A DNA stretch of 64,000 bases from Nitrospirota bacterium (GTDB taxonomy: Bacteria > Nitrospirota > JACRHJ01): assembly GCA_021784575.1 (NCBI GenBank), contig JAJYHX010000001.1, positions 413,917 through 477,916 on the forward strand. Reading direction: 5' to 3'. Both the position numbers and the translations under genes were made by a program. Shown here in pieces: positions 32,607 to 58,867 of the stretch (its first letter is position 1; the number at the start of each line of letters is the position of its first letter). The notes under the pieces were generated by a model. That model ran no database searches. It was given only the letters and a program-made list of their open reading frames with translations, and had not been told where the DNA came from.

Positions 32607-33614
32607 ATGTTTGTGAAACGCCTGGTAAGGACTTTTATTCCGTTCCTGATAGCGGGCGCCGTCCTCGCGGGGACTTCCCATGCCGCAAACGCCTTCAGGA
32701 ACGTCTCCGTGGGCCAGCACGCCCCCGACTTCACCCTTCAGGACAGCTCCGGCAAGGACTACTCCCTTTCGTCTTACTCGGGGAGGATTACGCTGGTAAT
32801 ATTCATCAGGCCGGACCAGGGGAGCTCCGTCAACGCGATGAAGATCCTCCAGAAGATATATCCCGAATTTTCATCAAAGGGTGTCGAGTTCCTGGCTATC
32901 GTCTCCGAGACCGACCAGAAAAACAACATACCCGTCCTGGTGCAGAAGGAAAATATTACGTTCCCGGTCCTGTTTGACGAAAACCGCAAGGTGTACGGCG
33001 CCTGGGGCACAATACTTTACCCCACAACCGGCATAGTCGGAAAAGACGGGAAACTGGCAGTCCAGGTGCCGATGTGCGACTGGAAATTCAAGGACACGGT
33101 CGTGGGCAACCTCAAACTTGCGCTGGGCGAGATAAGCAAAGAGCAGCTCGAAGAGGAGCTTAACCCGAAGGCCAACGAGACTGTCGCCCCGGGCCTGGCC
33201 AAGGCGCAGCGCCACATGATGCTGGCAGAAGACCTGATGAAGCGCCAGATGTACACGGACGCGTGCAAGCAACTTTCCGCTGCGGTCAAATCCGCGCCCG
33301 ACCTCACCGATGCGCATATAAAATACGGCTTCGCCCTCCTCAGCAAGGGAGATACGAAGAAGGCCGGGGAACAGTTTACCCTGGCGCTTAAGCAGGAGCC
33401 GAAATCGAACGATGCGAAGACGGGGCTTGGGTCCTGCCTTGTGGCGCAGGGGCAGGTGGATAAAGGCATCGAACTTCTGACGGAGGCGTCGAAGCTGAAC
33501 CCGCAGCCGGCCCGGGCGTATTTTGAACTCGGCAAGGCTTACGAGAAAAAGGGCGCCTTCGACAAGGCTGCGGAGTATTACAGAAAATCTGCGGAGAAAC
33601 TCGCCAACTGGTAA
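32607..33614 (+). CDS. Secreted thioredoxin-fold (AhpC/TSA-redoxin-like, no CXXC) protein fused to C-terminal TPR repeats
   Basis: Signal peptide MFVKRLVRTFIPFLIAGAVLAGTSHA; GQHAPDFTLQDSSGKDYSLSSYSGRITLVIFIRPDQGSS lacks the usual Cys pair; TPR-like helices (AYFELGKAYEKKGAFDKAAEYYRKSAE). Confidence 0.55.
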   Translation: MFVKRLVRTFIPFLIAGAVLAGTSHAANAFRNVSVGQHAPDFTLQDSSGKDYSLSSYSGRITLVIFIRPDQGSSVNAMKILQKIYPEFSSKGVEFLAIVSETDQKNNIPVLVQKENITFPVLFDENRKVYGAWGTILYPTTGIVGKDGKLAVQVPMCDWKFKDTVVGNLKLALGEISKEQLEEELNPKANETVAPGLAKAQRHMMLAEDLMKRQMYTDACKQLSAAVKSAPDLTDAHIKYGFALLSKGDTKKAGEQFTLALKQEPKSNDAKTGLGSCLVAQGQVDKGIELLTEASKLNPQPARAYFELGKAYEKKGAFDKAAEYYRKSAEKLANW

Positions 33615-37681: not shown

Positions 37682-40609
37682 ATGAAAAGATTATTAACGG
37701 TTCTAATCGCGGCGGCGGTGGTGCTTACGGCCTACCCGGCGTTCGCGATGATTCTCGGGTCGCCGCACGACTTCACTGGGCAGGCAGGCGCCGGCACCTA
37801 CGTTTACGGCACCTGCGATACATGCCACGTGCCGCACGCCGCGAAAGAGAGAAAACGTTTGTGGAATAACGTCACCGGCATTACAATAGGAGGCACCCCT
37901 TGGGGCAGCACCACGAAGGGCATAGGCCTTCTCTGCGGAAGCTGCCACTATGGAAACGCTTTTACGGTCGCGAACATTGGAGGCAGGCCGGCTGACAATA
38001 TGGCCAATCTTGCCTATGCCGCCACCTCTCACGGCGACAACCTGGGTGTCCTCGAAGGAACCGCCGCGGGCGACCTCAACGACACCGCTGGCGCCGCGCC
38101 CGACGCGACCCTGCCTTACACCCAGACCGCATCGAACACCATCGAATGCACCTCGTGCCACAACCCGCACCAGGACGGCGGCCCGGGCGGCGAAGCCAGT
38201 CCAAGCACCGGCATCAGGCCGTTCCTTCGCGCCGATACCGGCGTCACCGACATTTCCGATTTCTGCGCCGAGTGTCATAAGTCGAGGGTAAACAACCCGG
38301 TCAATTCCCTCAGCACAAACGACTACCAGAACGGCGACCCGACAGGCGCAGCGACGGCTTCAATGTCGGACTTTACCAGGAACCACCCGGTAAATGTTCT
38401 GTATGGCGACGACCCATCTAACGGCATCGGCTGGTTCAAGAACCAGCCTGCCGGCGGCCCGCTCACGACCGTCGTCTACGGCAAAAATGCGACCAACAAC
38501 GCCCTCATCGGCTGGTCCCTGGGCGGCAAGATGCAGAACACCGACGGCAGCATTCCGTCAACCGCATATACTGAAAACGCCGGCAGTACTCCCGATGCAA
38601 ATAACGTATTGGGCGGCACGAGCCAGGGAGCGCAGCAAATAGGCTGCATGACCTGCCACTCCATACACAAGCCTGGCGACAGCAACGGGTATGTAGGGTC
38701 TGACGCGGGTCTGAGCACCGGAACCGGTAGCTATCAGGCTCTCTGGCTTCTTGCGGTGGGCAACAGCGGCCAGGGCGGCGATTACAGGTCTGACCTCTGC
38801 GAGACCTGCCACGGCCAGGCTATTTCGACAAGCGCCACCACCTGGGATACGAGGGCGGGCGGCGTTGCGCCGAGCACCACTGGAGGCTATGACCACCCGA
38901 TAGACGGCCCGATTGCCGGCACATATCTCACCACCTTCATCACCGCATGGTCTATGGAGACAAACGGCAATACCACTTTCGGCCTTAACAGCCTCCGCAC
39001 CAGGGCCGAGCGCGTGCCGGCCGGCACATCTGCCACATGGCCCGCGGGCAACATGGGGTCTGCCACGCCCCAGATTATTTGCACCTCCTGCCACAGCGCC
39101 CATCATGCCGGGTCAAGGCTGAGGAGGATGAATGGTGATGTGAATGACTGGTGCAAGTCCTGCCATCCGTCGGTATCTCCGCTCGGGCATCACTCCAATC
39201 ACGCGAACGACTACCTTTCGGTGCTCGTGTGCTCAAACTGTCATACCGATGTGCCGGCTCTGAGCGGCGGCACGTATACTGTAAATGGGGTCGCTGAGAC
39301 CTCGTCAGGCCTGGCCCATAACGGCTTCGTCTACTATAACCTTGGCGGCGACAATATGGGCTCCACCCCGCTTGCCACCAATACAAATGGTGTGACTGTT
39401 TCCGAACCGTCTACGCAGTTGGCCAATGGATCCGGCTGTTCCTACTGCCATGCTATCGCGAAGGAACAAATAACATATCCGAATACTCAGAGTGCTACTA
39501 ATCCCGGTTATGCGGTGCCGCCGGTAAACAGGCTGGGCGACGTGACTAATTCGTATCAGGTGAACCACTACCTCGGCCAGTTTGACACCAACGCCAAGTC
39601 TGGTGTATCCATAAACGTCAAGACCGGGGCCTGGAACAGCTACCAGATGCTCCCGAACCACAAGGGCGAGCAAAGGGACTACTCCAAGTTCGGCAATTCC
39701 ACCGGCATCGGGAAGCGCGCAGCCGGCTGGTTACTCACCTGCGAGTCCTGCCATTCGATACTCGGCAACATAGGCAGGGAGGCGCCGGGACAAGGAGCGC
39801 CGATACTCGCCGGCATATCGTCCGGATGGGAGAACAACCTGCTCCTGGAGGACTACCAGGACGACAGCTACTACGGCAATGGAGCGGCAAGCGATCCTAC
39901 GTCCACCACAGCGACTGCTGGTGTAAACGCCGGCAACGGGATCACCTGGGCGACCCAGGCGAACGCCCTGAGCGTCGGTTCCGGTCTGTGCATAGCCTGT
40001 CATAATCAGGGCGGCGCACAGTACAACCAGGGCGCGGCCAACGGCACGGTGCCGGACTACGCAATTCAGGATCCTACGGTTGCGCCTCTGAACATGCACC
40101 CGATGACCGGATGGTCGATAACCAGGGCTCAGGACGCGGGCAGGACAACCGGTAACGGTTTCTTCCTGACCACGGACCAGGATGGGACAACCGATGACCT
40201 TTCTTACGCCAACAACCCGCAGCTTACTACCGGAGGCGCTTATGGGACGACTGGCGCTCCGGCGAAGAAGACCGGCGGATCGGTCGGGCTTGGCGCGGGT
40301 GAGGGCGCGGTATCCTATCCCGTAACTCCGGGCTCGTTGCATACGTCGAACGGCGATCCCCTTACATACTCTGGCGCTATGGACTGCGACAGCTGCCACA
40401 GGCCGCACAACGCGCCTTCCGGCGCCTGGTTGCCCGCGTCCGAAATAAAGACGCGCACACTCAGCAGCAGCGCCATCGGGAACGGCGCAGTCGATACCAC
40501 GGTGACAGGGGCTGTGGGTGTGCCGGTTATACTTGAGTACGCTAATACCGCTCAGGGTACCACCGCTGACAATACCGGGACCCTGTGCGAGCAGTGTCAC
40601 AGCTATTAG
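37682..40609 (+). CDS. Secreted multiheme c-type cytochrome, 975 aa, 14 CXXCH motifs arranged as paired (doubled-CXXCH) units, Gly/Thr/Ser/Asn-rich (cytochrome A)
   Basis: Signal peptide MKRLLTVLIAAAVVLTAYPAFA. Haem motifs CDTCH, CGSCH, CTSCH, CAECH, CMTCH, CETCH, CTSCH, CKSCH, CSNCH, CSYCH, CESCH, CIACH, CDSCH, CEQCH. Recurrent CxxCHxPH(xx) context as in TIGR01905 paired-CXXCH domains. N-terminal GSPHDF motif shared with cytochrome B. Confidence 0.75.
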   Translation: MKRLLTVLIAAAVVLTAYPAFAMILGSPHDFTGQAGAGTYVYGTCDTCHVPHAAKERKRLWNNVTGITIGGTPWGSTTKGIGLLCGSCHYGNAFTVANIGGRPADNMANLAYAATSHGDNLGVLEGTAAGDLNDTAGAAPDATLPYTQTASNTIECTSCHNPHQDGGPGGEASPSTGIRPFLRADTGVTDISDFCAECHKSRVNNPVNSLSTNDYQNGDPTGAATASMSDFTRNHPVNVLYGDDPSNGIGWFKNQPAGGPLTTVVYGKNATNNALIGWSLGGKMQNTDGSIPSTAYTENAGSTPDANNVLGGTSQGAQQIGCMTCHSIHKPGDSNGYVGSDAGLSTGTGSYQALWLLAVGNSGQGGDYRSDLCETCHGQAISTSATTWDTRAGGVAPSTTGGYDHPIDGPIAGTYLTTFITAWSMETNGNTTFGLNSLRTRAERVPAGTSATWPAGNMGSATPQIICTSCHSAHHAGSRLRRMNGDVNDWCKSCHPSVSPLGHHSNHANDYLSVLVCSNCHTDVPALSGGTYTVNGVAETSSGLAHNGFVYYNLGGDNMGSTPLATNTNGVTVSEPSTQLANGSGCSYCHAIAKEQITYPNTQSATNPGYAVPPVNRLGDVTNSYQVNHYLGQFDTNAKSGVSINVKTGAWNSYQMLPNHKGEQRDYSKFGNSTGIGKRAAGWLLTCESCHSILGNIGREAPGQGAPILAGISSGWENNLLLEDYQDDSYYGNGAASDPTSTTATAGVNAGNGITWATQANALSVGSGLCIACHNQGGAQYNQGAANGTVPDYAIQDPTVAPLNMHPMTGWSITRAQDAGRTTGNGFFLTTDQDGTTDDLSYANNPQLTTGGAYGTTGAPAKKTGGSVGLGAGEGAVSYPVTPGSLHTSNGDPLTYSGAMDCDSCHRPHNAPSGAWLPASEIKTRTLSSSAIGNGAVDTTVTGAVGVPVILEYANTAQGTTADNTGTLCEQCHSY

Positions 40610-40640
40610 TGGGTTGTGCCGGAAACTGACAACCATGACG

Positions 40641-40671
40641 AAAGGAGGGCCGCATGGCCCTCCTTTTTTTA
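40641..40671 (+). terminator. Rho-independent terminator after cytochrome A
   Basis: aggagggcc-gcat-ggccctcct followed by TTTTTTT. Confidence 0.75.
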
Positions 40672-40684
40672 AGGACGCAAAGGG

Positions 40685-40713
40685 CACGTCCTGATTGACT
40701 TGCGGAGCATTCT
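40685..40713 (+). promoter_or_regulatory. Near-consensus sigma-70 promoter upstream of the PPIase gene (TTGACT-17 nt-TATTAT)
   Basis: ttgacttgcggagcattctcctgtattat; -35 at 40685..40690, -10 at 40708..40713. Confidence 0.5.
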
Positions 40714-40817
40714 CCTGTATTATACCTAAGGCAAATTGCCGTTATTCCGGAAAGCGTTATGGGGAAGCGGCGTACCGGAGTTGGTTGATTAAAACAGCGT
40801 TTTGGAGGTTTTAAAAA

Positions 40818-42398
40818 ATGCGTCTCCCTGACAGAAAAAAATGGCTGACGGCGCTCCTGGCCGGATTGGTGATTTTGTCCGCTTTGAGCCAGGGCTGCGT
40901 CAGAACCCGACATTTCGGCAAGGGAGTGCTGGCGACCATCGATAATCAACCGCTTACCGTGGAAGAGTATAAAATCGTTGTCGGGAGGATACCGACGGAT
41001 TTCAAGAAAAGAAAGCGCAGGCTTCAGCAGATGATAAGCACGAGGCTCCTTGCGGAAGAGGCGCTTGCGAAAGGCTATCTCGGGACGTCCGCGGTTTACT
41101 GGGGCATGCAGAGGTTTTATTACTTCAGGCTGCCCGAACTGTTAAAGTGGGATGTCTACAATAAAATCAAGGTGGACAAGAACAAGCTGGACGCCATAAG
41201 AAAGGCAATGAATCTCCAGACGGTGGTGCATGTCAAGATGCTTGTCGCGCCGACGATAGGGAGGGCGCAGGCGGCGCTTAGCGACCTCGAAAAAGGCGAG
41301 AAATTTGAAGACGTGGCGGCAAAGTATACGGTCGTGAAGTCGGATGTCAGGCACGAGATAAGCCTCGACGATTCTCTTTATCCCATCGGGGTCAGGGCGA
41401 TATTAAACCGCACGAAACCCGGCCAGCTCACGCCGCCGATGAAGCTTGACATCGGCTACGCCGTGATGCAGGTGCAGTCGAAAGACGACCCGGCCGCCGT
41501 ATGGAAGTCCGTGGAAGACAGAATGGCGGGGAACCTGAAACAACAGGAAATGAAAAAAGAGATGGCGGATATACTTGCCCGGCTTCGTTCCACCGCCAAG
41601 ATAAAGATATATTCACAGAAGAACAAGCAAGGACAGACAATATATACCGGCGCGGAGGTCAACGGCATAAATATAAACATGAACCCGCGCCTCTTCAAGC
41701 GGCAGAACAACCCTCATTTCGCGCACACGATGATGAACGCCCAGACACTGATGGCAGCGCTCAACGAAAGAATCAACGACATACTTTACACCGAGGAGGC
41801 GAAGGCGCGCGGCCTCCAGTACAACCCAAGGTTCAGGGAAGACGTGCGGCTGAAGAGGGAGGAGGTGCTTGCGGATTGTTACCTTGAGGCGATGGTAGGA
41901 AACAATACCGCAACTCCGCAGGATATAGAGAACTATTACGAAAAATATAAAAAGAGACACGAACAGAACCGGCTTGCGCGCATAAGCCACATACTGCTTC
42001 CGAGCGAGAGCCAGGCGGAGACGGTTCTCTCAGAATTGAAAAAAGGAAAGGATTTCGCCCGGCTTGCAAAAGAAATGTCGCTCGACCTGCCGACAAAAAA
42101 CGCCGGCGGCGTTGTCGGTTTTATCGATCCGAAAACCCTGAAGGAACCGATGAAGAGCGTTATCATGGGAATGAAGCCCGGAGAGATAAGCGGGATTGTA
42201 AAAGGCCCGGCTGGGTACGAAATAGTGAAGGTGACCGAGTGGAAAAACGAGATCGTGCCGCCGCTTTCCGAGATAAAGGACGAGATGACAAACAGGGTAC
42301 TCTTGAACAAGCGCTCGGACAAAGTGACGGCGCTTTATAAGGTGGTTTACGCAAAGCACAAGGTCGAAATAAACGAGCAGCTTCTAAAGTCGCTGTAA
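40818..42398 (+). CDS. Periplasmic parvulin-type peptidyl-prolyl cis-trans isomerase (SurA/PrsA/PpiD-like chaperone), probable lipoprotein
   Basis: 526 aa; signal plus Cys (LVILSALSQGC); SurA-N-like region; PpiC rotamase domain (ARISHILLPSESQAETVLSELKKGKDFARLAKEMS...GGVVGFI). Confidence 0.65.
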   Translation: MRLPDRKKWLTALLAGLVILSALSQGCVRTRHFGKGVLATIDNQPLTVEEYKIVVGRIPTDFKKRKRRLQQMISTRLLAEEALAKGYLGTSAVYWGMQRFYYFRLPELLKWDVYNKIKVDKNKLDAIRKAMNLQTVVHVKMLVAPTIGRAQAALSDLEKGEKFEDVAAKYTVVKSDVRHEISLDDSLYPIGVRAILNRTKPGQLTPPMKLDIGYAVMQVQSKDDPAAVWKSVEDRMAGNLKQQEMKKEMADILARLRSTAKIKIYSQKNKQGQTIYTGAEVNGININMNPRLFKRQNNPHFAHTMMNAQTLMAALNERINDILYTEEAKARGLQYNPRFREDVRLKREEVLADCYLEAMVGNNTATPQDIENYYEKYKKRHEQNRLARISHILLPSESQAETVLSELKKGKDFARLAKEMSLDLPTKNAGGVVGFIDPKTLKEPMKSVIMGMKPGEISGIVKGPAGYEIVKVTEWKNEIVPPLSEIKDEMTNRVLLNKRSDKVTALYKVVYAKHKVEINEQLLKSL

Positions 42399-42423
42399 CA
42401 TCAGCACCGAGGTTTACGCACTA

Positions 42424-44052
42424 ATGGGTAGTAAGATGTTCACGAGAAACAAGCTGGTTGCCTTGGCGGCGGCTTCGCTTCTCTTTATTCTAAGTGTTGT
42501 TGCCGCATTTCCCGCGCAGGACTCCGTCAAGCCTCCGATATGGGTTGGCATCTACATCGCCGCAGAGAAGGTGGGGCTTAAGTGGACGCCGGTCAAGGGC
42601 GCTGTACGGTATAAGATATACCGTTCCATTTCCAGCGGCGGCCAGTACAACCTCATCGCGTCAACTACGGACGACTCTTACATCGACCCCACGGTCCTCA
42701 TAGGGGAGACCTACTACTACGTCCTCAAGTCCGTCGGAGCCGGCAGCAAGGAATCGGGTTATTCCGAAGAGCGTTATATAAAGGTGCCGGTCGTCAAGGA
42801 GACCGTGCCCGTCCAGCCGCCGGAATGGGTTGGCGCGCTGGTGGGAAGAAGAAGGATAAGGCTCGCCTGGAATCCCTCCGCCTCGAAGGACGTCCTCGCA
42901 TATAACGTCTACAGGAGCGCCGACCCAACGAAGGGTTTTCAGCTCATCGGCTCCACTCAGGACACCAGCCTCACCGACACGGACATAAAAGAAGGCGAGA
43001 CATACTACTATGCCGTCTCCGCCCTGGATAGAAATTTCAGGGAGACAAAGCTCGGAAAGGTGCAGACCGTCCGGTATGCGCCTTCGGAGGGGAAACCGGG
43101 CGTCGGGGCCGTCCGGCCAGGCGCGTCCGAGATGCCGCCGCGGATTATACCGACAAGGCTGACTATCAGGCGCACCCGGCGGGTGGGATATATCCTGAGG
43201 TGGAAGAACCGCAGGCCGCTTTTTTCTCCGACGGATGTCGTCCTTGGCAAGGACGGGAAGATATACGTATCTGATACCGGCGACAGCATGATACAGGTCT
43301 TCAAGCCGGGAGGCGCCTTCATACGGTCCATCGGCAAGTTCGGGACAAAGCCTGGGCAGTTCGAGAAGCTCCTCGGCGTGGATGTCAACGACAAGGACGA
43401 AGTCCTCGCCGTTGACGCTTATACCGGCACGATACAGAAGTTCGACAAGAAGGGCCGTCTCATAATGTTCAAGAAGATGCTTGATGACAGCAAGGCCATC
43501 GCGCTTGACCTTGGACGCAAGAAGCCGGTGGAGGTCTTCGGCATAATAAAGGGCCTCTTCGCCCCGGACGGGAACCTGTACATAATCGACAACTTCAACG
43601 ACTGCGTCGAAATTTATTCGCCGACCGGCAAATATATAAAGACGTTCGGAGGCAAGGGAAGGCAGGACGGGAAGTTCCTGTCTCCCACCTTTGCCATATT
43701 CGGGAAAGACGGGCATCTCTACGTGTCCGATTGCATGAACGCGCGCGTCCAGGTGTTCGACAAGGACGGACACTTTCTGTGGAAGTTCGGCGGGTACGGA
43801 AATATCGCCGGGACATTCGGCAGGCCGAAGGGCATCTGCATCGACAAGGCCGGCAATATATACGTCTCGGATTCCATGTCCAACGCGATACAGGTGTTCG
43901 ACAGGCACGGCAGGTTCAAGTACGCCCTGGCGAACAGAATGGGCAAACAGATTGATATGGCCACTCCGAACGGTATAGCCATCGACAAAGACAAGCGCAT
44001 CTATATCGTCGAGAAGCTGGTGAACCGTATCCAGATCAGACAGGTCGAGTAG
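42424..44052 (+). CDS. Secreted NHL-repeat beta-propeller protein with two N-terminal FN3-like domains (paralog 2)
   Basis: Signal peptide; FN3 signatures (RYKIYRSISSGGQYNLIA...ETYYYVLKSV; YNVYRSADPTKGFQ...ETYYYAVSALD); NHL blades (GKIYVSDTGDSMIQVFKPGGAF, GNLYIIDNFNDCVEIYSPTGKYI, GHLYVSDCMNARVQVFDKDGHFL, GNIYVSDSMSNAIQVFDRHGRF, KRIYIVEKLVNRIQI). Confidence 0.7.
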   Translation: MGSKMFTRNKLVALAAASLLFILSVVAAFPAQDSVKPPIWVGIYIAAEKVGLKWTPVKGAVRYKIYRSISSGGQYNLIASTTDDSYIDPTVLIGETYYYVLKSVGAGSKESGYSEERYIKVPVVKETVPVQPPEWVGALVGRRRIRLAWNPSASKDVLAYNVYRSADPTKGFQLIGSTQDTSLTDTDIKEGETYYYAVSALDRNFRETKLGKVQTVRYAPSEGKPGVGAVRPGASEMPPRIIPTRLTIRRTRRVGYILRWKNRRPLFSPTDVVLGKDGKIYVSDTGDSMIQVFKPGGAFIRSIGKFGTKPGQFEKLLGVDVNDKDEVLAVDAYTGTIQKFDKKGRLIMFKKMLDDSKAIALDLGRKKPVEVFGIIKGLFAPDGNLYIIDNFNDCVEIYSPTGKYIKTFGGKGRQDGKFLSPTFAIFGKDGHLYVSDCMNARVQVFDKDGHFLWKFGGYGNIAGTFGRPKGICIDKAGNIYVSDSMSNAIQVFDRHGRFKYALANRMGKQIDMATPNGIAIDKDKRIYIVEKLVNRIQIRQVE

Positions 44053-44054
44053 CC

Positions 44055-46181
44055 GTGAAAAAGCTTGTTTTGATTCTTGCCGCAATAGTAAGCGTAATCG
44101 CCGCGAAAGAAGTTTTCGCGGGGGTTATCGGTTCTCCGCACGATATAGCCGCCCAGAAGTATGTTGTAGCCGGCGAGCAGCAGTGGACCAAGAACGTGTG
44201 CAACTACTGCCACGTTCCGCACAAGGCGAAGGGCGCGATGCTCTGGCCGACGCCTCCTCCGGCGCTCAAGGGCTGGGGCAGGGTAGGGCCTTTGTGTTAT
44301 TCCTGCCACGACGGCGTGGCGATTGTCTCTCCCTACGTGGATGCGTCCCAGACGGTTTTCAATCCGAAGAGCCACGGACTCAAGCTTGCAGACCTCCCGG
44401 CGGGCGACGACGCATCCGGCTCCGGCCTGCCGTATACCAACGGCAGCCAGGACCACATCGAATGCAGCACGTGCCATAATCCGCACGACGACACGCACAG
44501 GCCCTTCCTCCGGGTGGACATCAACCAGCTCTGCGAGAAGTGCCACAAGCACCGCGAGAACTCCGGCTACGGCATAAACAACGCCGAGGGAACCCATCCG
44601 GTTCACATGCCGCTTAAAGACCAGACTGGCGGCCGCATCCCGCTTGAGCCCATCAGCAGCTTCATGGTGCCGTTCCCGATGCCGTATCCAAAAGAGAACG
44701 GGAAAAACACGTACGGCGTGCACTGGACGCTTGGCGGGCATCTCTCGGATGGCTCAACCGGAACGGTGGAATGCACCACCTGCCACAGCATACACGGCAG
44801 ACTGCCCTCCGGGCCGTTCTACAAGCTTCTCAGCGTCGATCCTGTGAAGGACGACGCGGACAATTTCTGCGAGGGCTGCCACAGGGGCAAGAGAGCCGAC
44901 GGACTGCCGTCCCCGCCATATCCGAACCCGGGCGGCACGACAGCCCCGCTCAGTTATCATCCCGCCGACAACGACACCTGCAACGGCACGACCGACACGA
45001 CCAACGGCAGGATTGTGGCGATAAACGAGCCGGACGGATGGGTATTCGGCAAGCACGGAGAGGTTCTCTGCACGACCTGCCATGAACCGCACGGCGCCCG
45101 GAAAAACTCTCCGATACTGAGGCAGGACCCGGATTCGCCGACGTTCTGCGAGTCGTGCCACTCGGTTCCGTTCCCGCATCACCCGACCGGAGACCTCACC
45201 GGCAATTCAAACATAAATTCGGGCGACGCGCACGCCAGCACGAGAGAGATTGTAATACCCCCGTCCTTTCCCGCCGGGATCACGTACGGCGACCCGAAGC
45301 CCGGCTGGCTGTACTGCTCAAGCTGCCACAGGGCGCACAACGCCAACTGCACCCCGATTCTGGTAATAGACTGTCGAAACGGCACCGCCTGCGACATATG
45401 CACTATGTGTCATCCGAAGTACAACCCTACATGGCAGACTGACGACAACTGGAAGTCTACCCATTTCATGGGAGATCCGACGGCGTTTACAGTGCCCTAC
45501 ATAACATTGCAGGGCGATCTCGAAGGAACACAGCCGGGGTATTACGACCAGTATCCGCCCATGCACATAGGAAAATGGCCGGAATCGGGGCTGGAGTCGC
45601 AATACGGAGGGCCGAGCGGCAAAGAGATAACGTGCTGTTCGTGCCACAGCTTCGACGTGGGTAACATTACCGCCGGAAACGCCGACCAGTCTCCGTACCT
45701 TGGGCCGATACTCGCTCCCGGATACCAGCCGACTGACCTGGTTTCAGGGCTTCTTGCGAGGGCCGGCAGTTACAAGGAATGGCTGCCGAGCGACGTGCAG
45801 GATGTTATAATCGGCGGCAACCGCGGCACCGAACAGATAGTTGACAAATACCTCTGCACAGGCTGTCACGGCCTGACGCCGAGGACGGACGTGTCGTCGG
45901 GCTGGGAAGGCTTTACGCATCCCATGATGAATGCCGACGGCTCCACCCTGGCGAATATAATTGCGCCTGCCACCCTGACTTTCAACCAGCATGTAAACTG
46001 CGAGTCCTGCCATACCCCGCACGAAGCCGACAGCAGGGGCGGTTTCCTGATACTAAAGACTGCGGCCCTGAAAGACCCGATGGCAAACAGCGCGCCGCCG
46101 GATCCCTACCGCATCTACAAGGATCCGGTCAATTACATCGAGTTCGCGCCGCTTTGCGAACTCTGCCACATAGGATATTGA
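44055..46181 (+). CDS. Secreted multiheme c-type cytochrome, 708 aa, 14 CXXCH motifs in paired arrangement (cytochrome B)
   Basis: GTG start 3 nt after NHL2 stop; signal peptide MKKLVLILAAIVSVIAAKEVFA; GSPHDI motif; CNYCH, CYSCH, CSTCH, CEKCH, CTTCH, CEGCH, CTTCH, CESCH, CSSCH, CTMCH, CSCH(CCSCH), CTGCH, CESCH, CELCH. Confidence 0.75.
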   Translation: MKKLVLILAAIVSVIAAKEVFAGVIGSPHDIAAQKYVVAGEQQWTKNVCNYCHVPHKAKGAMLWPTPPPALKGWGRVGPLCYSCHDGVAIVSPYVDASQTVFNPKSHGLKLADLPAGDDASGSGLPYTNGSQDHIECSTCHNPHDDTHRPFLRVDINQLCEKCHKHRENSGYGINNAEGTHPVHMPLKDQTGGRIPLEPISSFMVPFPMPYPKENGKNTYGVHWTLGGHLSDGSTGTVECTTCHSIHGRLPSGPFYKLLSVDPVKDDADNFCEGCHRGKRADGLPSPPYPNPGGTTAPLSYHPADNDTCNGTTDTTNGRIVAINEPDGWVFGKHGEVLCTTCHEPHGARKNSPILRQDPDSPTFCESCHSVPFPHHPTGDLTGNSNINSGDAHASTREIVIPPSFPAGITYGDPKPGWLYCSSCHRAHNANCTPILVIDCRNGTACDICTMCHPKYNPTWQTDDNWKSTHFMGDPTAFTVPYITLQGDLEGTQPGYYDQYPPMHIGKWPESGLESQYGGPSGKEITCCSCHSFDVGNITAGNADQSPYLGPILAPGYQPTDLVSGLLARAGSYKEWLPSDVQDVIIGGNRGTEQIVDKYLCTGCHGLTPRTDVSSGWEGFTHPMMNADGSTLANIIAPATLTFNQHVNCESCHTPHEADSRGGFLILKTAALKDPMANSAPPDPYRIYKDPVNYIEFAPLCELCHIGY

Positions 46182-46189
46182 GGGATACA

Positions 46190-48481
46190 ATGCTGCGGAC
46201 GGCGAAACATATCATGCTTGTTCTGACGGTCGCGGCGGCGCTGCTCCCGGCTGTTGCGTACGCGGCAATAGGCGGCACGGAATCGAAACACAACATGACA
46301 CTGTTAGGCGGCTACCCCTACGGCCAGAACGTATGCGACGCATGTCATTCGTCACATTTCGACTCGGGCGTTAGGCTTTGGGCGGCGGGCAGGCAGACGG
46401 AACTCGCTAACGCAAAGAATCAGTCTCAGGACGAACTGGCCGGCGGGAATTATCCGGGCATATACCTCTGCCTCGACTGCCATAGCACGGCAGCGTCGGT
46501 TCCATCGGCGCCTGCCTCCTGGGCAAAGCCCGCCGCCGAGAACGTCGTCACGCACTCGACGCTCGAAATGAAATTCGCCGGGTATTCCACGAAATACGAG
46601 TCTTTTACGATGCAGTGCACCACCTGCCATAATACGCATCAGTACTGGAACGGCACGTTCCAGCCGGGCCAAAACGGATACATGATACGCTCCACCATCA
46701 TCACCCCGAACAGCGGCGTTAAGAAGGTGGTCTTCTACGCGATATCCGGCCCGAACTCCATGGGGAACGACTATACGCCCCATACGTCCATATGCGAGGT
46801 CTGCCATACCAGGACCACTTACCACAACAACGCGTCATCCAATAACCCGCATTACGACGGGCAGAAATGCACTCTCTGCCACAACCACCAGAACGGTTTC
46901 AGCGCGAGGTGGACATGCACCTCCTGCCACGGGAACCCGCCGACGAGCCAGCCGCTGCTTGTGGGCCGCTCCCTGAAGAACGGTTATCCGCCCACAGGCG
47001 AGACCTCGGCGGGTATGCACGCCTTCCACTTCTACTCCACGAAGGTTTATTCCACAAACGGGTCCTTCAGCGTCGGTTATTCCTGCGACTACTGCCACAA
47101 GGGCGGCATGAACGATACCGGGCTTACCGACAAGATTATAGAAGTGAAGTTCTCGGATTTTAGCCGCTACACATCCGGCAGTTTCGACGGCTTTGCTCCG
47201 ATAAGCGGCTATACCTTCAGCCCCGGCAATACCACCGGCGGGACGCAGGCCTGCTCCAACACCTATTGCCACGGCAACTTCTACGGCGGGAACAAGACCA
47301 ACAAGCCCGTATGGACAAACGCCGCGAGCGGGGCATGCGGCACCTGCCACGCCACCGCCCCACCGGCCCTTCTCGACCACAGCGTGCACCTAACGGCCTC
47401 GTGGGGACCGAAGGCGTCCTGCGACGACTGCCACGGCGCCAACGCCTCCATTGGCAGCAACACCGGGCACGTGGGCGGGTTCGTCATATTTGCAGACTTG
47501 AAGAACTTCTCCACCACGACCGTTTGCAACGGGTGCCACGGAAGCGGCGCGGCGATGGCAAAGGCATACTGGGGGCACACCAGCATCAGGTCGCAGGACT
47601 CCTGGTGCGAGTCCTGCCACAACGGCAACAGCCCGGCGTCCGTCGTGAATACCGCCGCCGGGACAGGCGGAGTCAATGTTACCGCGCAGAATGTCGTCGG
47701 CGACAAAACGACCTACGGTTACGACTATACCGGCCACGGCGCGCCCCCGGGCGCGATCCAGTGCACCGCATGTCACGACATAAAGTCTCAGCACGTGGGC
47801 CCAGCCTCGTTCTCGTACAAGGCGTCGTCCAATAACTACAGGTCCGCCTTCAGGATGGGTTCGGTGTCCAATACCGTCCCGCTGCTCGGCAGCTATACGT
47901 CTTCGGCGGCGGCGCTGTGCTATTCCTGCCACAGCCAGACGAAGATACTGGGTATGCCCGCCGAGGGAAAACCGTCATCCATGCACGTCCACAACCCCAT
48001 ATACATTTCCTCCTGGGCCACGGATTTCCGCAATACCTCGACGATACTCGGACTTTACAGCGGCGGCGACTGGGACGCCACCGGCAGCAGCGCCGACGAG
48101 CCCACCAACATCCACTGGAACCACCTTGACGACTACGGGAGCACCAAACGCTACCCGTCGGCCTACATATACGACTCCGACGGCGACGGAGCCGGAGACT
48201 CCCGCATCGTCTGCGATACATGTCACGACCCGCACGGCACGCAGCAGCCCGCGATGGTATACGATGCGTTCGACCTGAGGACTTATTCCGCCCCGCCCAA
48301 TCCCGGCTACAGATGGGTAAACGGAAGCGGATATGCGACGAACAGGTGCATTTCCCCCGGCAACTCATGTCATACGGCGGGAGATTTTCCTGGAACCGCG
48401 GGCATGAGGTGGTATCGGCAGACCCTGTCGAATACCACAACCGGCGCCCCGGTGGGACTTACGGCGACTCAGCTGCAATAG
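46190..48481 (+). CDS. Secreted multiheme c-type cytochrome, ~764 aa, ~15 CXXCH (one CX4CH) motifs (cytochrome C)
   Basis: ATG at 46190 with RBS gaggg; signal peptide MLRTAKHIMLVLTVAAALLPAVAYA; CDACH, CLDCH, CTTCH, CEVCH, CTLCH, CTSCH, CDYCH, CSNTYCH, CGTCH, CDDCH, CNGCH, CESCH, CTACH, CYSCH, CDTCH. The track ORF start at 46154 overlaps cytochrome B. Confidence 0.75.
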   Translation: MLRTAKHIMLVLTVAAALLPAVAYAAIGGTESKHNMTLLGGYPYGQNVCDACHSSHFDSGVRLWAAGRQTELANAKNQSQDELAGGNYPGIYLCLDCHSTAASVPSAPASWAKPAAENVVTHSTLEMKFAGYSTKYESFTMQCTTCHNTHQYWNGTFQPGQNGYMIRSTIITPNSGVKKVVFYAISGPNSMGNDYTPHTSICEVCHTRTTYHNNASSNNPHYDGQKCTLCHNHQNGFSARWTCTSCHGNPPTSQPLLVGRSLKNGYPPTGETSAGMHAFHFYSTKVYSTNGSFSVGYSCDYCHKGGMNDTGLTDKIIEVKFSDFSRYTSGSFDGFAPISGYTFSPGNTTGGTQACSNTYCHGNFYGGNKTNKPVWTNAASGACGTCHATAPPALLDHSVHLTASWGPKASCDDCHGANASIGSNTGHVGGFVIFADLKNFSTTTVCNGCHGSGAAMAKAYWGHTSIRSQDSWCESCHNGNSPASVVNTAAGTGGVNVTAQNVVGDKTTYGYDYTGHGAPPGAIQCTACHDIKSQHVGPASFSYKASSNNYRSAFRMGSVSNTVPLLGSYTSSAAALCYSCHSQTKILGMPAEGKPSSMHVHNPIYISSWATDFRNTSTILGLYSGGDWDATGSSADEPTNIHWNHLDDYGSTKRYPSAYIYDSDGDGAGDSRIVCDTCHDPHGTQQPAMVYDAFDLRTYSAPPNPGYRWVNGSGYATNRCISPGNSCHTAGDFPGTAGMRWYRQTLSNTTTGAPVGLTATQLQ

Positions 48482-48492
48482 GAGAGTCGGCT

Positions 48493-50928
48493 ATGAAGAT
48501 GAAAATGACGAAGACAAAAACGGTTCTACTTTTTGCGGTGTTCGCGCTTGTTGGCGTTGCCGCAGGGCTGCCCGCCGAGGCTGCGCCGGCGACCGCGCGT
48601 ATCGTGCCTGCGCGGATGCGTCCGCAGATGGCGGCGCGCGTGTTTGCGCCGGAAACGTCCGTGCATATGCAGAGGTTCGCGCCCGGGCATATGTCCATGC
48701 CCATGCGTATGCCGGCGCAGATTCGTCCATGGCAGAGGCCCGCGCCCGGGCAGGCATCCACGCCCATGCGTATGCCGGCGCAGATTCGTCCGATGCAGAG
48801 GCCCGTGCCCGCGCAGACCAGTCCGGTGCGGAGGTCCGCGTCCGGGCAGACCAGTCCGCAGGCGCCTGCGCAGAAGCCCGTCTCCGGCCAAACGTCCGCC
48901 GCCGGTCAAACCGCCCCGGCCGGTAAAAGCGGCGGGCCTGGCATAAAGCTTCAATGGAAGGCCCCCGCCGGCATTGCCGTGTCGAAGATAGCGGGGTACT
49001 ACATCCTGCGCGCCGACAAAGAGCTTGGGCCGTATAAAAGAATAAACGAAAGCCCTGTCAAGACGCTTTCGTACGACGATAAGGGCCTGAAAGACAAGGC
49101 GGGGTATTTCTACGAGGTTTGCACGGTTTTGCAAAACGGCACGATGAGCCGCCCCACGAAGCCTGTCGGGATAATTGTCGGAAGCAAGCAGACGTACGCG
49201 CCGCCGCGGATAGAATCCTTTGGCGCGGATTCCGCCGGGAAAGTCAGATATGCCGGAGAGACCGCGTTTTTCAACATGAGCGGGACTCCGGGAGACAACG
49301 CGGTTTTTTCCATCGAAGGTCAGACAGGCGGGATAACGACGCCCGGCACGCAGATAACGATGAAGGAGATAACGCCCGGCGTTTACAGGGGCGCATACAC
49401 CGTGGCGCGCGGCGTCCGGATAATAAACGGTTATGCGGCGGCTACATTGTCGGATGACAAGGGAGGGCAGGCTGCCGCAAAGACCGGCGCCAACCTCGAT
49501 TTTATCGGGATGGCCAAACCGGCAATCTCCGGACTTTACGCAAGCCGGATTACAAGCGACAGCGTGTGCGTCGGCTGGCCCCGCGTCGACACCGGCGAAG
49601 GATATTACAACCTGTATCGGGACACCTCGCGCATAGTGGACGCCAGCAAACTTACCCCGCTGTCTGCGAACATGAACACCAGCGTATCCACATTCATAGA
49701 CGATTCCGTAAAGGCGGGGACAAGCTACTACTATGTCCTGGTTTACGACGATCTTTCGGGCGCGCCGCTCGCCATAAGCGATAACCTGGAAGTCAATGTC
49801 CCGTGGATGCATGTTTCATTCGGAGCAAACTCCGTGCATGAAGACTCCGGAGGGAAAACCCTGAAGCCCGGAGACGTCCTCGGCGTAACCGTGAACACGG
49901 CGGCCGGCGGCAAGGCGGCATTCAGTATAAGCAATACGGCCAGCAACCTTGCGCTGACGGAAGGCCCGGCCGGGGTCTACAAGGGCGCGTGGACGATAAA
50001 GGAGGGCGACGGGATATTCAAGAGCAGGGTGGCCGTGAATTTTACGGCCCCTGACGGCAGACAGCATTCCGCGCTGTCCGCAACGCTTGTCTCCGTGGAC
50101 GCCCCGAAGGCAAATCAAGTGAAGCCCGCCGTTCTTGCGGCCTCCGTGAAAACCATTGGGGGCAGGAATCCGGTACTGGTCAATAGCAGAAATCCAGCCG
50201 GGATTAATAAGAAGCTGCCCGGAGCCGGGAAGCCGGTTATCGCCGGGATTAAAGGCAACGTCAGGGTAATTCCGGGGCCGCCGGGCAGGCCGGCAGCCGG
50301 AAAGAAACTTACCGTATTGCCCGGGAAGGCGGGAAGAACGTCAATCATCACAACCGGAGGGCTTGCCTCAAGACCCGGCGGTGTCATCGGCGCGGCGCAG
50401 GCGGCGAAGAGCGCATCAATCATCACGGGCGGGAGGCCTGACTCAATACCGCGTGGGCTGCCGTATGAATTTCAGAAGCCGGAACCCCGGCCATCTCCTG
50501 CTCCGGGAATGCATTCTCCGGCTTCGGGAATACAAAGGGCCGGCGGCTCGTTTCCGGGCAGGCCGGCGGAAAGCGCCGGAACCCCGGCGAACGCTGTGAA
50601 CCCGATTGGCGTTGTAAACCCGGCAGGCACTGTGGCCCCGATTGGCGTTGTGAACCCGCTTGGCGCTGTAAACCCGGCAGGCACTGTGGCCACGATTGGC
50701 GTTGTGAACCCGCTTGGCACGGTGAACGCGGCGGGCGCGGGGAATGCTGCCGCGGGGCCTGTCTCAAGCCTTCCGGCGCCGTCGCATGGGAAGAAAAAAC
50801 CGGGAACTCCGCAGTCTCCGGCTTCGGGAACACAGTCTCCGGTTCCGGGAATGCAGTCTCCGGTTCCGGGAATGCAAAAGGCCGGCGGCTCGGTTCCGGG
50901 CCACGGCGTTTCGGCCTTTGGAGACTGA
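48493..50928 (+). CDS. Large repetitive secreted/surface protein (~811 aa) with FN3-like and Ig-like domains, N-terminal Met/Pro/Arg-rich repeats and C-terminal NPxGxV repeats
   Basis: Signal peptide MKMKMTKTKTVLLFAVFALVGVAAGLPAEA. Repeats MPMRMPAQIRP(W/M)QRP x2; FN3-like (GYYILRADKELGPY...; GYYNLYRD...SYYYVLVYDD); two Ig-like modules; C-terminal tandem (NPIGVVNPAGTVAPIGVVNPLGAVNPAGTVATIGVVNPLGTVN) mirrored by ~60-nt DNA tandem repeats at ~50590..50720 and ~48700..48830. Confidence 0.55.
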   Translation: MKMKMTKTKTVLLFAVFALVGVAAGLPAEAAPATARIVPARMRPQMAARVFAPETSVHMQRFAPGHMSMPMRMPAQIRPWQRPAPGQASTPMRMPAQIRPMQRPVPAQTSPVRRSASGQTSPQAPAQKPVSGQTSAAGQTAPAGKSGGPGIKLQWKAPAGIAVSKIAGYYILRADKELGPYKRINESPVKTLSYDDKGLKDKAGYFYEVCTVLQNGTMSRPTKPVGIIVGSKQTYAPPRIESFGADSAGKVRYAGETAFFNMSGTPGDNAVFSIEGQTGGITTPGTQITMKEITPGVYRGAYTVARGVRIINGYAAATLSDDKGGQAAAKTGANLDFIGMAKPAISGLYASRITSDSVCVGWPRVDTGEGYYNLYRDTSRIVDASKLTPLSANMNTSVSTFIDDSVKAGTSYYYVLVYDDLSGAPLAISDNLEVNVPWMHVSFGANSVHEDSGGKTLKPGDVLGVTVNTAAGGKAAFSISNTASNLALTEGPAGVYKGAWTIKEGDGIFKSRVAVNFTAPDGRQHSALSATLVSVDAPKANQVKPAVLAASVKTIGGRNPVLVNSRNPAGINKKLPGAGKPVIAGIKGNVRVIPGPPGRPAAGKKLTVLPGKAGRTSIITTGGLASRPGGVIGAAQAAKSASIITGGRPDSIPRGLPYEFQKPEPRPSPAPGMHSPASGIQRAGGSFPGRPAESAGTPANAVNPIGVVNPAGTVAPIGVVNPLGAVNPAGTVATIGVVNPLGTVNAAGAGNAAAGPVSSLPAPSHGKKKPGTPQSPASGTQSPVPGMQSPVPGMQKAGGSVPGHGVSAFGD

Positions 50929-51007
50929 AATTTATATAACTGGCCGTAAAGACATGGCGTAAAGGCATTGGGGACCTGTGAAAATATTCCCGACCCTGTC
51001 TGGGAAA

Positions 51008-52813: not shown

Positions 52814-52917
52814 AGAGTGAATTCAATCTTTAAAAATTTTTAATTTTCAAAGATTGATGTTGCAAATCAATTATAGCTATGATAAAAAGTCAAACTGGGG
52901 GAGGGGGAGCGTTTATT

Positions 52918-53832: not shown

Positions 53833-53896
53833 AAAATTCGCGGGCACGGGTATTAATAACGAGAACAGGGGTTTTAAGTATAAAATGCGTATATCC

Positions 53897-56624: not shown

Positions 56625-56646
56625 GCCGGCCGCTCGGTTTCAAAAT

Positions 56647-56679
56647 AAAAAAAGCCCCGTAAAAACGGGGCCTTTTTTA
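56647..56679. terminator. Bidirectional rho-independent terminator (A-run, GCCCCG-loop-CGGGGC, T-run) closing the cytochrome cluster and the convergent small gene
   Basis: aaaaaaagccccgtaaaaacggggcctttttt. Confidence 0.8.
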
Positions 56680-56690
56680 TGTCTTTCCGG

Positions 56691-58866: not shown

Positions 58867-58867
58867 T

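Follow-up and report, generated by a model that had tools for sequence, protein, structure and literature searches.

Three very large multihaem cytochromes, here called A, B and C, are encoded close to each other in a stretch of Nitrospirota DNA of 64,000 nucleotides, which we analysed as a whole and refer to as the window (all positions are given within it). A preliminary description, made from the letters of the DNA alone, had pictured them as giant proteins with few haems for their length that recall outer-surface or filament-forming cytochromes. What kind of proteins are these, and do they and their neighboring genes belong to a known electron transfer system or to a new one?

Size, composition and haem motifs of the three cytochromes

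The three genes are located as follows:

37682..40609, plus strand: cytochrome A, 975 aa, 14 CXXCH motifs, 40% G/T/S/N
44055..46181, plus strand: cytochrome B, 708 aa, 14 CXXCH motifs, 15 conserved distal His
46214..48481, plus strand: cytochrome C, 755 aa, 14 CXXCH motifs plus CX4CH and a C-terminal CX6CH

For C the open reading frame spans 46154-48481 and gives 775 aa from a TTG codon; a database protein that is 100% identical to C (P0137) comprises 755 aa, which fits a start at 46214. Low haem density had been claimed for these proteins and it holds, with 14 CXXCH in each of the 708-975 aa chains, or one per 50-70 residues (69.6 aa per haem in A, 50.6 aa in B). As a protein of such size and composition is expected to contain about 0.03 CXXCH by chance, the haem motifs of A, B and C are not chance occurrences; in A 28/28 Cys sit inside them. 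The long Cys-free stretches noted earlier reach 128 aa in A, 76 aa in B and 94 aa in C. In a Kyte-Doolittle window test the N-terminal signal peptide was the only hydrophobic segment to pass in each of the three, in agreement with the earlier view that no membrane anchor follows it. The reported richness in Gly, Thr, Ser and Asn is evident in A (40.3%) and C (37.7%) but weaker in B (28.5%), compared to 21.6% for a set of 15 ORFs of housekeeping type in this window. The interval 37682-48481 had been presented as one of cytochromes; besides A, B and C it holds two genes that do not encode cytochromes, one for an NHL protein and one for a prolyl isomerase, and the fourth cytochrome, F, with 10 haems (55326-56624), lies beyond it.

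Regarding the arrangement of the haem motifs, a CxxCHxxH followed by a plain CxxCH forms a recurring pair, found five times in A, six times in B and three times in C. Such pairs had been described with a spacing of 35-45 aa; the pairing stands, but the spacing within pairs ranges from 23 to 67 aa. The doubled-CXXCH pattern is the curated domain PF09699/TIGR01905. All four cytochromes pass the Pfam cutoff of 20.6 bits for PF09699 (A 56.2, B 76.0, C 42.5, F 134 bits), and in the comparison with TIGR01905 that had been suggested (NCBIfam cutoff 25.2 bits) A with 51.2 and B with 61.6 bits pass, with C just under the cutoff at 24.5 bits. The CSNTYCH of C (CX4CH, 47252-47272), previously taken as atypical, is invariant in 18 orthologues, and residues 358-404 of C (numbering of the 775-aa ORF) pass the CxxxxCH/CxxCH families TIGR01904 (37.8 bits, NCBIfam cutoff 27) and PF09698 (27.1 bits, Pfam cutoff 21.7), for which A and B gave no match. 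The motif is therefore a feature of the family and not an oddity, so that both motifs that had been treated as unusual correspond to curated domain families. Such families cover short stretches at the level of motifs, have not been given a function and do not describe the overall architecture of the proteins. Orthologues of C have already been named by NCBI after these motif families. C and A additionally pass PF22113, the Pfam MtrC/MtrF domain II/IV (68 and 38.8 bits, cutoff 30), which is a pentahaem domain, and C also matches a c7-type trihaem domain.

A further Cys..Cys-His close to the C-terminus of C is CX3CH in most of 17 aligned orthologues and CX6CH here (48347-48373). Because this motif and the CX4CH are conserved extras, C probably binds 16 haems. 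The CXXCH motifs are invariant across each of the families A, B and C, conserved distal His number 14 in the A family, 15 in the B family and 18 in the C family, and no CXXCK motif is present in any of the three proteins. This combination fits haems for electron transfer rather than catalysis, most or all of them probably bis-His ligated.

An OmcE-like module at the N-terminus

Single-sequence searches of the PDB yielded only weak c3/c7-type matches for A and C, so that family profiles were needed to detect OmcE. Positions 1-184 of the A-family profile align, each time in a single collinear stretch, with residues 1-217 of 9YUQ (E 5.9e-15) and with residues 11-231 of 7TFS (E 4e-12). The B-family profile likewise matches 7TFS (E 2.2e-15) and 9YUQ (E 9.2e-12), and further MtrA (6R2Q_A, E 1.4e-8) and OmcS (E 1.2e-6), OmcE and OmcS being among the proteins that the preliminary description had proposed for comparison. 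Both profiles span OmcE from end to end, with the four CXXCH in order, and C is tied to OmcE only via its N-terminal likeness to A. The tetrahaem module occupies aa 1 to ~200 in A (37682-38281), and its OmcE-like counterpart in B aa 1 to ~166 (44055-44552). It consists of a signal peptide, a His about 7-9 residues into the mature chain and then the CXXCH motifs, all four of which are found in A and B, and of the module in C only the first three haems could be aligned to A. Past the module, ten or more extra haems are strung on a loop-rich chain.

Profile-profile comparison shows A and B to be full-length paralogues, with homology across 580 columns (E 6e-65), and pairs C with A in the 140 columns at the N-terminus (E 4e-24). 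Judged from these alignments, A, B and C share a superfamily with the nanowire subunit OmcE. The homology of A and B to OmcE is new; the doubled-CXXCH and CX4CH domains were already known. What had been sensed as a likeness to outer-surface or filament cytochromes is partly supported, and the motifs noted at the time are those of curated families.

OmcE subunits carry four conserved distal His in addition to their four CXXCH. The A family has four invariant His in the module (H29, H52, H117 and H163), three of which align with OmcE His and the fourth is displaced. The His near the mature N-terminus is invariant in A (H29), conserved to 98% in B and to 94% in C (H26). The CHxPH His is kept by every member of the A and C families; in the B family just 25% carry it after haem 1. 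An AlphaFold model of B shows pLDDT values of 46-74 at residues 21-110, exactly the OmcE-like region, and fold searches with this model recovered OmcE over just 35 columns; for C an AlphaFold2 model made with 18 sequences had a mean pLDDT of 29 and was unusable. B belongs to a widespread 14-haem family. In 82 loci from many phyla the OmcE-like module heads proteins of 4, 11 or 14 haem motifs, with an NHL gene at ≤10 kb from it in 74/82 and an F-like cytochrome at ≤10 kb in 50/82.

The surrounding gene cluster and its proposed role

The features surrounding A, B and C are:

32607..33614, plus strand: thioredoxin-TPR protein, secreted thiol-disulfide oxidoreductase (ResA/AhpC type) with fused TPR, opens the conserved cluster
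33629..35425, plus strand: TMEM260/PMT glycosyltransferase (O-mannosyltransferase-like), polytopic membrane protein (PF11028 114.8 bits, PF13231)
35875..37551, plus strand: NHL1, secreted NHL beta-propeller directly 5' of A (PF01436 and other propeller families)
40636..40672, plus strand: intrinsic terminator directly 3' of the A stop codon, fold with 11-bp GC-rich stem, 4-nt loop and seven T
40818..42398, plus strand: PpiC/SurA-type peptidyl-prolyl isomerase with lipoprotein-type signal LSQGC (PF00639, PF13145)
42424..44052, plus strand: NHL2, secreted, weak fn3-like part followed by an NHL propeller, directly 5' of B (PF01436 92 bits)
48493..50928, plus strand: protein D, secreted, weak fn3-like match
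50978..52813, plus strand: protein E, putative large outer-membrane beta-barrel, 611 aa, no Cys, 39% G/T/S/N
52879..53697, plus strand: CsgG/LpoB/GNA1162-like lipoprotein, lipobox LAGC (PF03783 29.7 bits, PF13036, PF05643)
53885..55381, plus strand: NHL3, NHL propeller lipoprotein with lipobox VWGC, directly 5' of F (PF01436 58 bits)
55326..56624, plus strand: cytochrome F, MtrA-like decahaem (PF09699 134 bits)

The thioredoxin-TPR protein matches the Pfam families AhpC-TSA, Redoxin and TPR, weakly the CcmH/CycH TPR, and NCBIfam ResA under the cutoff; it probably helps cytochrome c maturation. The glycosyltransferase is a candidate for the glycosylation of the Ser/Thr-rich cytochromes. Four NHL propeller proteins are encoded in the cluster, one of them (1/4) with a lipobox. 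Protein D, whose start codon was picked by eye, has a net charge of +42, is rich in Pro, Ala and Gly and contains short tandem peptide repeats. The gene for the CsgG-like lipoprotein was also found in a close relative. Trihaem, cupredoxin and stand-alone tetrahaem genes are absent from the cluster.

Protein E shows many alternating hydrophobic and polar segments, and its alternation score of 0.38 is the highest of the ORFs scored. Its relatives comprise 20 clusters among 1.84 billion representatives. Searches of Pfam and NCBIfam gave no match, nor did those of the PDB with the single sequence or the family profile; in profile-profile comparison E is not similar to the putative barrels of the Uet-like loci L025 and L032, and no similarity to any known barrel, MtrB included, was detected. 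The C-terminus is RK and not an aromatic residue. From its composition and the alternation of its segments we infer a barrel, and E is a putative large outer-membrane beta-barrel. Cytochrome F is basic, with a haem-free N-terminal part of ~200 aa followed by 10 CXXCH in ~230 aa (five doubled-CXXCH units). Among solved structures, chain A of 6R2Q matches F best (E 8.5e-10); we take this chain to be MtrA although the label in the search table differs. F is a candidate periplasmic or barrel-threading component.

The gene order thioredoxin-TPR, glycosyltransferase, NHL, A, prolyl isomerase, NHL, B, C, D is kept in Nitrospirota MAGs (7 Nitrospirota loci). Orthologues of A share 73, 41, 40, 32 and 30% identity, those of B 94, 74, ~65, 60 and 67%. 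A is the fastest-evolving gene of the cluster, and the length variation among its orthologues is located in the G/T/S/N-rich loops, as expected of the most exposed component. The terminator stem is identical, with variable loop, after the A orthologue in 5/5 other Nitrospirota loci examined. This terminator was found by folding; the consensus promoter/terminator scan was uninformative and missed it.

We consider it rather likely, from these homologies and the gene neighbourhood, that A, B and C are Sec-exported electron-transfer proteins which form the outer-surface part of an extracellular conduit. From the observed motifs, homologies and synteny we infer location, glycosylation and order of the components as follows. 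The thioredoxin-TPR protein and the prolyl isomerase would help maturation, the TMEM260/PMT-like transferase would probably glycosylate the Ser/Thr-rich loops and the NHL propellers would serve as scaffold. E would be an outer-membrane barrel threaded by the dense, MtrA-like decahaem F, and electrons would travel between periplasm and outside by way of F, E, the pair B and C, and finally A, an order which is guessed; exposure and variability would be greatest in A. The direction of flow is not readable from the sequence and could correspond to metal reduction or to electron uptake. Against an extracellular position of B speak its lower G/T/S/N content, its high conservation and its local similarity to MtrA and DmsE, so that B could instead be periplasmic or inserted into the barrel.

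The kinship with OmcE raises the possibility that A, B or C polymerise head-to-tail into extracellular filaments as OmcE does, with the N-terminal His of one subunit supplying the missing ligand to the C-terminal haem in the next, 14-16 haems per subunit and possibly a glycan sheath. We regard this as doubtful. It would be in keeping with the homology of the N-terminal module to entire OmcE subunits and with the conservation of the mature-N-terminal His in all three families and of the CHxPH His in A and C, as OmcE and OmcS filaments depend on His passed between subunits. A and B moreover stop directly after the last CXXCH with a CHxPH-type motif before it, like OmcE, the N-terminus of B is conserved yet badly modelled as a monomer, and the terminator after A would let one structural subunit be over-expressed. 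However, no filament with subunits this large has been reported, the CHxPH His after haem 1 is rare in the B family, and each family holds enough conserved His to ligate all haems in one chain. The wider proposal that A, possibly with B and C, represents a new nanowire class, with 14-16-haem subunits or stacked paralogues joined by the OmcE-type module, glycosylated loops outside and export via the orphan barrel E with help of the NHL proteins, seems to us unlikely as well. If true, these would be the largest nanowire subunits known, and the range of cytochrome filaments would widen to take in uncultured Nitrospirota as well as those MAGs of Acidobacteria, Rokubacteria, Deltaproteobacteria and Gemmatimonadota in which the 14-haem family occurs.

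Could the proteins never leave the periplasm, as relays or storage wires comparable to the Geobacter dodecahaem GSU1996 or MtrA-type proteins? Their signals are Sec signal peptides only, with no recognisable secretion signal, no secretion system was identified confidently, the decahaem families DmsE/MtrA and GSU2203 match B and C below threshold, and the c7-type trihaem unit is present in C. On the other hand, haem density is 2-3x lower than in F or MtrA-type proteins, A diverges quickly with loop expansion, the closest matches among solved structures are OmcE subunits, which are extracellular, and glycosyltransferase, putative barrel and propeller genes are present as in clusters of extracellular cytochromes; we rate a purely periplasmic location as quite improbable. 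An enzymatic role for A, B and C, in the manner of nitrite reductase, hydroxylamine oxidoreductase or octahaem tetrathionate reductase, is very improbable. This reading (NrfA, HAO, OTR) is largely refuted: CXXCK is lacking, and fold searches with the B model returned nothing significant. As to the enzyme likeness that the preliminary description had named as the result that would speak against it, A, B and C showed no similarity to nitrite or hydroxylamine reductases, the NrfA matches of the A and B family profiles (E 3e-5 to 0.05) being local only.

Nanowires and outer-membrane conduits have been characterised in just a few cultured metal reducers. Here the tetrahaem unit of OmcE turns up repeatedly as a module at the N-terminus, with an NHL propeller gene nearly always near it, and uncultured Nitrospirota hold three enlarged versions in one conserved, apparently self-contained cluster, which makes the cluster a concrete and testable candidate for electron exchange with minerals in these organisms. 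The series of 4, 11 and 14 haems lets one ask what makes an OmcE-like unit a polymer or a single long wire, and A, B, C and E are specific markers for metatranscriptomic surveys of extracellular electron transfer.

Comparison with known systems

Large multihaem cytochromes that are co-expressed with NHL propeller "scaffold" proteins, or have their genes next to them, are known from outer-membrane cytochrome clusters of Desulfovibrio ferrophilus IS5 (Deng et al. 2018), where two cytochromes have 12 and 14 haems, and from clusters of peat Acidobacteriota and Verrucomicrobiota (bioRxiv 2026), in which extended OmcE-like cytochromes with 8-13 haems had been recognised from structural models. Both sets were compared with A, B and C from their descriptions, and the haem counts differ. 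The Manganitrophaceae PCC clusters and a paper on Nitrosomonas communis were also looked at and judged irrelevant.

With MtrCAB of Shewanella (6R2Q) the window shares the MtrA-like character of F and of parts of B, as well as the MtrC/MtrF domain II/IV carried by C and A. The best scores against the OmcA/MtrC family TIGR03507 (C, 38.7 bits, cutoff 209) and the DmsE/MtrA family TIGR03508 (B, 44.3 bits, cutoff 192) are both under the cutoff. By analogy, the overall logic may be the one of MtrCAB, with a periplasmic decahaem in a barrel and surface cytochromes outside.

The Uet (undecahaem electron transfer) cluster of 'Ca. Tenderia electrophaga' and Gallionella encodes a tetrahaem (UetA), a prolyl isomerase (UetB), a barrel (UetC), trihaems (UetDEG), a cupredoxin (UetF), two NHL proteins (UetH/I) and an extracellular undecahaem (UetJ). 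Prolyl isomerase, NHL propellers and a barrel, putative here, are common to both, the PpiC/SurA-type isomerase being the equivalent of UetB. In loci that we call Uet-like by architecture, not by direct comparison with Tenderia sequences, the 11-haem proteins and the B family have the N-terminal module in common (profile-profile E 5e-22), but the match ends after ~150 residues, and from there to the C-terminus the proteins are unrelated. The window further differs by 14-16 instead of 11 haems, by missing the trihaem c7 proteins and the cupredoxin, and by protein E, which is not detectably related to Uet-like barrels.

A and B share with OmcE of Geobacter sulfurreducens (7TFS) and Desulfuromonas soudanensis (9YUQ) the signal peptide, a His-Asp near the mature N-terminus and four collinear CXXCH in CHxPH, PFLR and terminal LCxxCH contexts. 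In published clusters, OmcE is accompanied by a large beta-barrel, a pair of beta-propeller lipoproteins and two other multihaem cytochromes, and GT39 and TPR genes are often present as well; propellers, further multihaem cytochromes, a putative barrel, GT39-like and TPR genes are likewise present here. In its gene classes the window resembles the published architecture of OmcE and Uet clusters, with the barrel putative and a lipobox in one of the propeller proteins. In contrast to the two propeller proteins of OmcE clusters there are four here, together with the prolyl isomerase and the CsgG-like lipoprotein. OmcE itself comprises 218-232 aa and ends at haem 4, whereas A, B and C continue for another 500-800 residues and 10-12 haems, and with 708-975 aa and 14-16 haem motifs they are not tetrahaem subunits of ~200-230 aa. 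Taking the OmcE-like module together with a gene cluster of the outer-membrane electron-transfer type, the sequence comparisons identify A, B and C as new and enlarged relatives within the known OmcE-type system and not as a new kind of system.

Cytochromes A, B and C and their gene cluster

The interval 37682-48481 of the window holds five co-directional genes, those for the large multihaem cytochromes A, B and C, a prolyl isomerase and a propeller protein with NHL repeats, and lies within a longer cluster, as listed here.

Genes of the cluster (window positions)
32607-33614, ResA-like thioredoxin fused to TPR repeats
33629-35425, TMEM260/PMT-like membrane glycosyltransferase
35875-37551, NHL1 propeller protein
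37682-40609, cytochrome A, 975 aa, 14 CXXCH
40818-42398, PpiC/SurA-type prolyl isomerase, between A and NHL2
42424-44052, NHL-repeat propeller protein (NHL2), directly before B
44055-46181, cytochrome B, 708 aa, 14 CXXCH
46154-48481, ORF of cytochrome C, 14 CXXCH plus CSNTYCH
48493-50928, basic Pro/Ala-rich protein D
50978-52813, protein E, 611 aa, Cys-free, S/T/N-rich
52879-53697, CsgG-like lipoprotein
53885-55381, NHL3 propeller lipoprotein
55326-56624, haem-dense decahaem cytochrome F

The preliminary description was accurate in its motif counts, in the density of one haem motif per 50-70 residues and in naming the N-terminal signal peptide as the sole segment of A, B and C hydrophobic enough to span a membrane; all 28 Cys of A sit inside CXXCH motifs. 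Its picture of G/T/S/N-rich proteins fits A (40%) and C (38%) when set against 22% for housekeeping-type ORFs elsewhere in the window, but B is lower with 28.5%. A and B are both acidic (net charge -27 and -22, respectively). The doubled CXXCH units do exist, although the pairs are 23-67 residues apart instead of the proposed 35-45, and they correspond to an already curated domain (PF09699/TIGR01905). CSNTYCH is likewise present in C, but this CX4CH is hardly atypical, being the curated TIGR01904/PF09698 motif and invariant in 18 orthologues. For C, a start at 46214 would fit a 100%-identical database protein of 755 aa (P0137). A second conserved non-canonical Cys..Cys-His site lies near its C-terminus (48347-48373, aa 712-720 of the 755-aa protein), reading CX3CH in most of 17 aligned orthologues, CX4CH in the orthologue P0145 and CX6CH (RCISPGNSCH) in the window protein. 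Because this site and the invariant CX4CH add to the 14 CXXCH, C probably carries 16 haems rather than 14, as judged from sequence.

The whole cluster order is repeated in a close relative, and the order from the thioredoxin-TPR gene to C (plus D where the fetched stretch extends that far) is kept in Nitrospirota MAGs whose A is down to 30-40% identity. Downstream the cluster is bordered by an IS1595-family transposase (57176-58114, PF12762, E 1.4e-39) within a drop in G+C from about 0.58 to 0.45-0.49 (56600-60000), which suggests that a mobile or recently acquired segment adjoins it. The best solved relative of F is 6R2Q chain A (E 8.5e-10), which we take to be MtrA of the Shewanella MtrCAB complex; the PDB table names this chain of 333 residues "Cystathionine beta-synthase", a label not to be relied on; CXXCH motifs abound in the aligned sequence. 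D is secreted, very basic (net +42, opposite in charge to A and B) and Pro/Ala/Gly-rich, is conserved in the Nitrospirota cluster, and carries short tandem peptide repeats (RMPAQIRPxQRP, GVVNPxGTV, SPVPGMQ); a weak fn3-like match was its only one. The small lipoprotein between E and NHL3 is weakly similar to CsgG, which forms the curli secretion channel, and to the LpoB and GNA1162-like families; the accessible parts of the published OmcE and Uet (undecahaem electron transfer) cluster descriptions contain no counterpart of its gene.

An OmcE-like N-terminal module and its distribution

The B family comprises 224 proteins in a word-indexed search, with named members from MAGs labelled Nitrospirota, Methylomirabilia, Acidobacteria and Methanoperedens and "cytochrome c3 family protein" as the sole annotation; all 14 CXXCH and 15 further His are conserved in an alignment of 80 sequences. 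The A family is small (16 proteins, every named one from Nitrospirota MAGs) and ranges from 740 to 975 aa, since the invariant haem motifs are separated by inserted G/T/S/N-rich loops that vary in length. Full-length orthologues of C number about two dozen and are named "CxxxxCH/CxxCH domain c-type cytochrome" at NCBI. Profile-profile comparison reveals homology between A and B along practically the entire chain (580 columns, E 6e-65), and C has its N-terminal ~140 residues in common with A (E 4e-24).

Single sequences of A, B and C barely detect anything in the PDB, whereas family profiles detect relatives. Positions 1-184 of the A-family profile align in one collinear stretch with the entire tetrahaem nanowire subunit OmcE (9YUQ of Desulfuromonas soudanensis, E 5.9e-15; 7TFS of Geobacter sulfurreducens, E 4e-12), and the top two PDB matches of the B-family profile are 7TFS and 9YUQ (E 2.2e-15 and 9.2e-12), with 6R2Q chain A (MtrCAB complex, E 1.4e-8) and OmcS (E 1.2e-6) next. 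The aligned features follow in order: signal peptide, a His-Asp/Asn roughly seven residues from the mature N-terminus, CxxCHxPH...LW, CxSCHDG, CxxCHxxHd...PFLR and a final LCxxCH, the end point of OmcE. A and B therefore consist of an OmcE-like tetrahaem module and ten further haems; C and A have the first three haems of the module in common.

Complete ORFs starting with the module were surveyed in 82 loci, 80 from a scan of species-representative genomes and two fetched earlier, and fall into three main size classes.

Module-headed complete ORFs by number of haem motifs
4 motifs, 60 ORFs, about 190-380 aa, OmcE/UetA-like
11 motifs, 48 ORFs, mostly about 555-650 aa, as described for UetJ
14 motifs, 22 ORFs, 695-1010 aa, in Nitrospirota, Acidobacteria, Rokubacteria, Deltaproteobacteria and Gemmatimonadota MAGs

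Between the B family and an 11-haem protein, homology does not reach past the N-terminal ~150 residues (E 5e-22). Of the 82 loci, 74 have an NHL propeller gene and 50 an F-like doubled-CXXCH cytochrome at a distance of no more than 10 kb. Many of the loci L018-L082 encode a 4-haem protein as well as an 11-haem one, both headed by this module and accompanied by an NHL propeller gene and by a large, Cys-poor ORF whose last residue is aromatic (for example L025 14357-16852 and L032 6655-8916). Such loci resemble Uet-type clusters, and their MAGs carry labels from Gamma- and Betaproteobacteria, Bacteroidota, Verrucomicrobiota, Acidobacteriota and other phyla.

Terminator and rapid divergence of A

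Directly 3' of the A stop codon we found a strong intrinsic terminator (40636-40672; 11-bp GC-rich stem, 4-nt loop, seven T) that a simple terminator scan had missed. Across loci it reads AAAGGAGGGCC, 4-nt loop, GGCCCTCCTTT and 6-9 T, the stem being identical and the loop variable behind the A orthologue in each of the five other Nitrospirota loci examined (L003-L005, L007, L008), even where A has only 30-40% identity. A itself diverges much faster than every other cluster gene (L003-L008; e.g. 41% identity where B has 74% and NHL2 66%), with length changes concentrated in the G/T/S/N-rich loops that separate the invariant haem motifs. The terminator makes A the last gene of its transcription unit, so that its expression level can differ from that of the prolyl isomerase, NHL2, B and C downstream, and may plausibly be higher. 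Such an arrangement is common for the major structural subunits of surface appendages.

Proposed role and relation to known systems

The best-supported reading, which we consider rather probable, makes A, B and C electron-transfer cytochromes without catalytic function that form the outward part of an OmcE/Uet-type outer-membrane conduit; most or all of their haems probably have bis-His ligation. F would be the periplasmic, barrel-threading component, E the putative barrel and the NHL propellers scaffolds; the thioredoxin-TPR protein and prolyl isomerase would aid maturation, the PMT-like transferase would glycosylate Ser/Thr-rich loops, and A, the most variable member, would also be the most exposed. 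Sequence alone does not tell which way the electrons flow. The weakest link of the conduit reading is the putative barrel identity of E. Its composition (39% G/T/S/N, no Cys) and alternating hydrophobic pattern resemble an outer-membrane barrel, with the top alternation score among the ORFs scored (0.38), but its conserved C-terminus ends in RK, atypical for such a barrel; E has no match in Pfam, the PDB or profile-profile comparison, putative barrels of Uet-like loci included, and its family is tiny, with just 20 clusters in a set of 1.84 billion representative proteins. The structure model of C was unusable (pLDDT 29), and the OmcE-like part is the least confident region of the B model.

Polymerisation of the three cytochromes in the manner of OmcE is doubtful. 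The whole module with its conserved N-terminal His residues is kept, the chain ends at a CXXCH like OmcE and a terminator follows A, yet the CHxPH His is missing in three quarters of the B family, the conserved His in each chain suffice for all its own haems, and no known filament has subunits this large. Compared with the conduit reading, a purely periplasmic role of the three cytochromes is improbable, even more so than polymerisation, and an enzymatic role is hardly credible.

Neither the motifs nor the cluster logic is new, and earlier work briefly mentions extended OmcE-like cytochromes. The literature searched did not describe a whole OmcE tetrahaem subunit serving as the N-terminal module in distinct 11-haem and 14-haem families, full-length paralogy between the A and B families, or a conserved Nitrospirota cluster in which three such proteins occur with an orphan putative barrel and the fastest-evolving member is followed by a conserved terminator. 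A 2026 preprint reports OmcE-like cytochromes with 8-13 haems in clusters of peat Acidobacteriota and Verrucomicrobiota. In published OmcE clusters, OmcE is encoded together with two multihaem cytochromes, a pair of beta-propeller lipoproteins and a large beta-barrel, and GT2/4/39 and TPR genes commonly come next; Nitrospirota homologues of OmcE are already noted there (bioRxiv 10.1101/2025.10.22.684050). The Uet cluster combines a tetrahaem and an undecahaem with a prolyl isomerase, a barrel and two NHL proteins (bioRxiv 10.1101/2022.05.06.490989, PMC10734462), and NHL-associated outer-membrane cytochromes are described for Desulfovibrio ferrophilus (PMC5815863). The content of the window cluster matches these published descriptions in its classes of gene, with E as putative barrel; the cytochromes themselves differ in that the OmcE chain ends at its final LCxxCH, whereas A and B continue beyond it.
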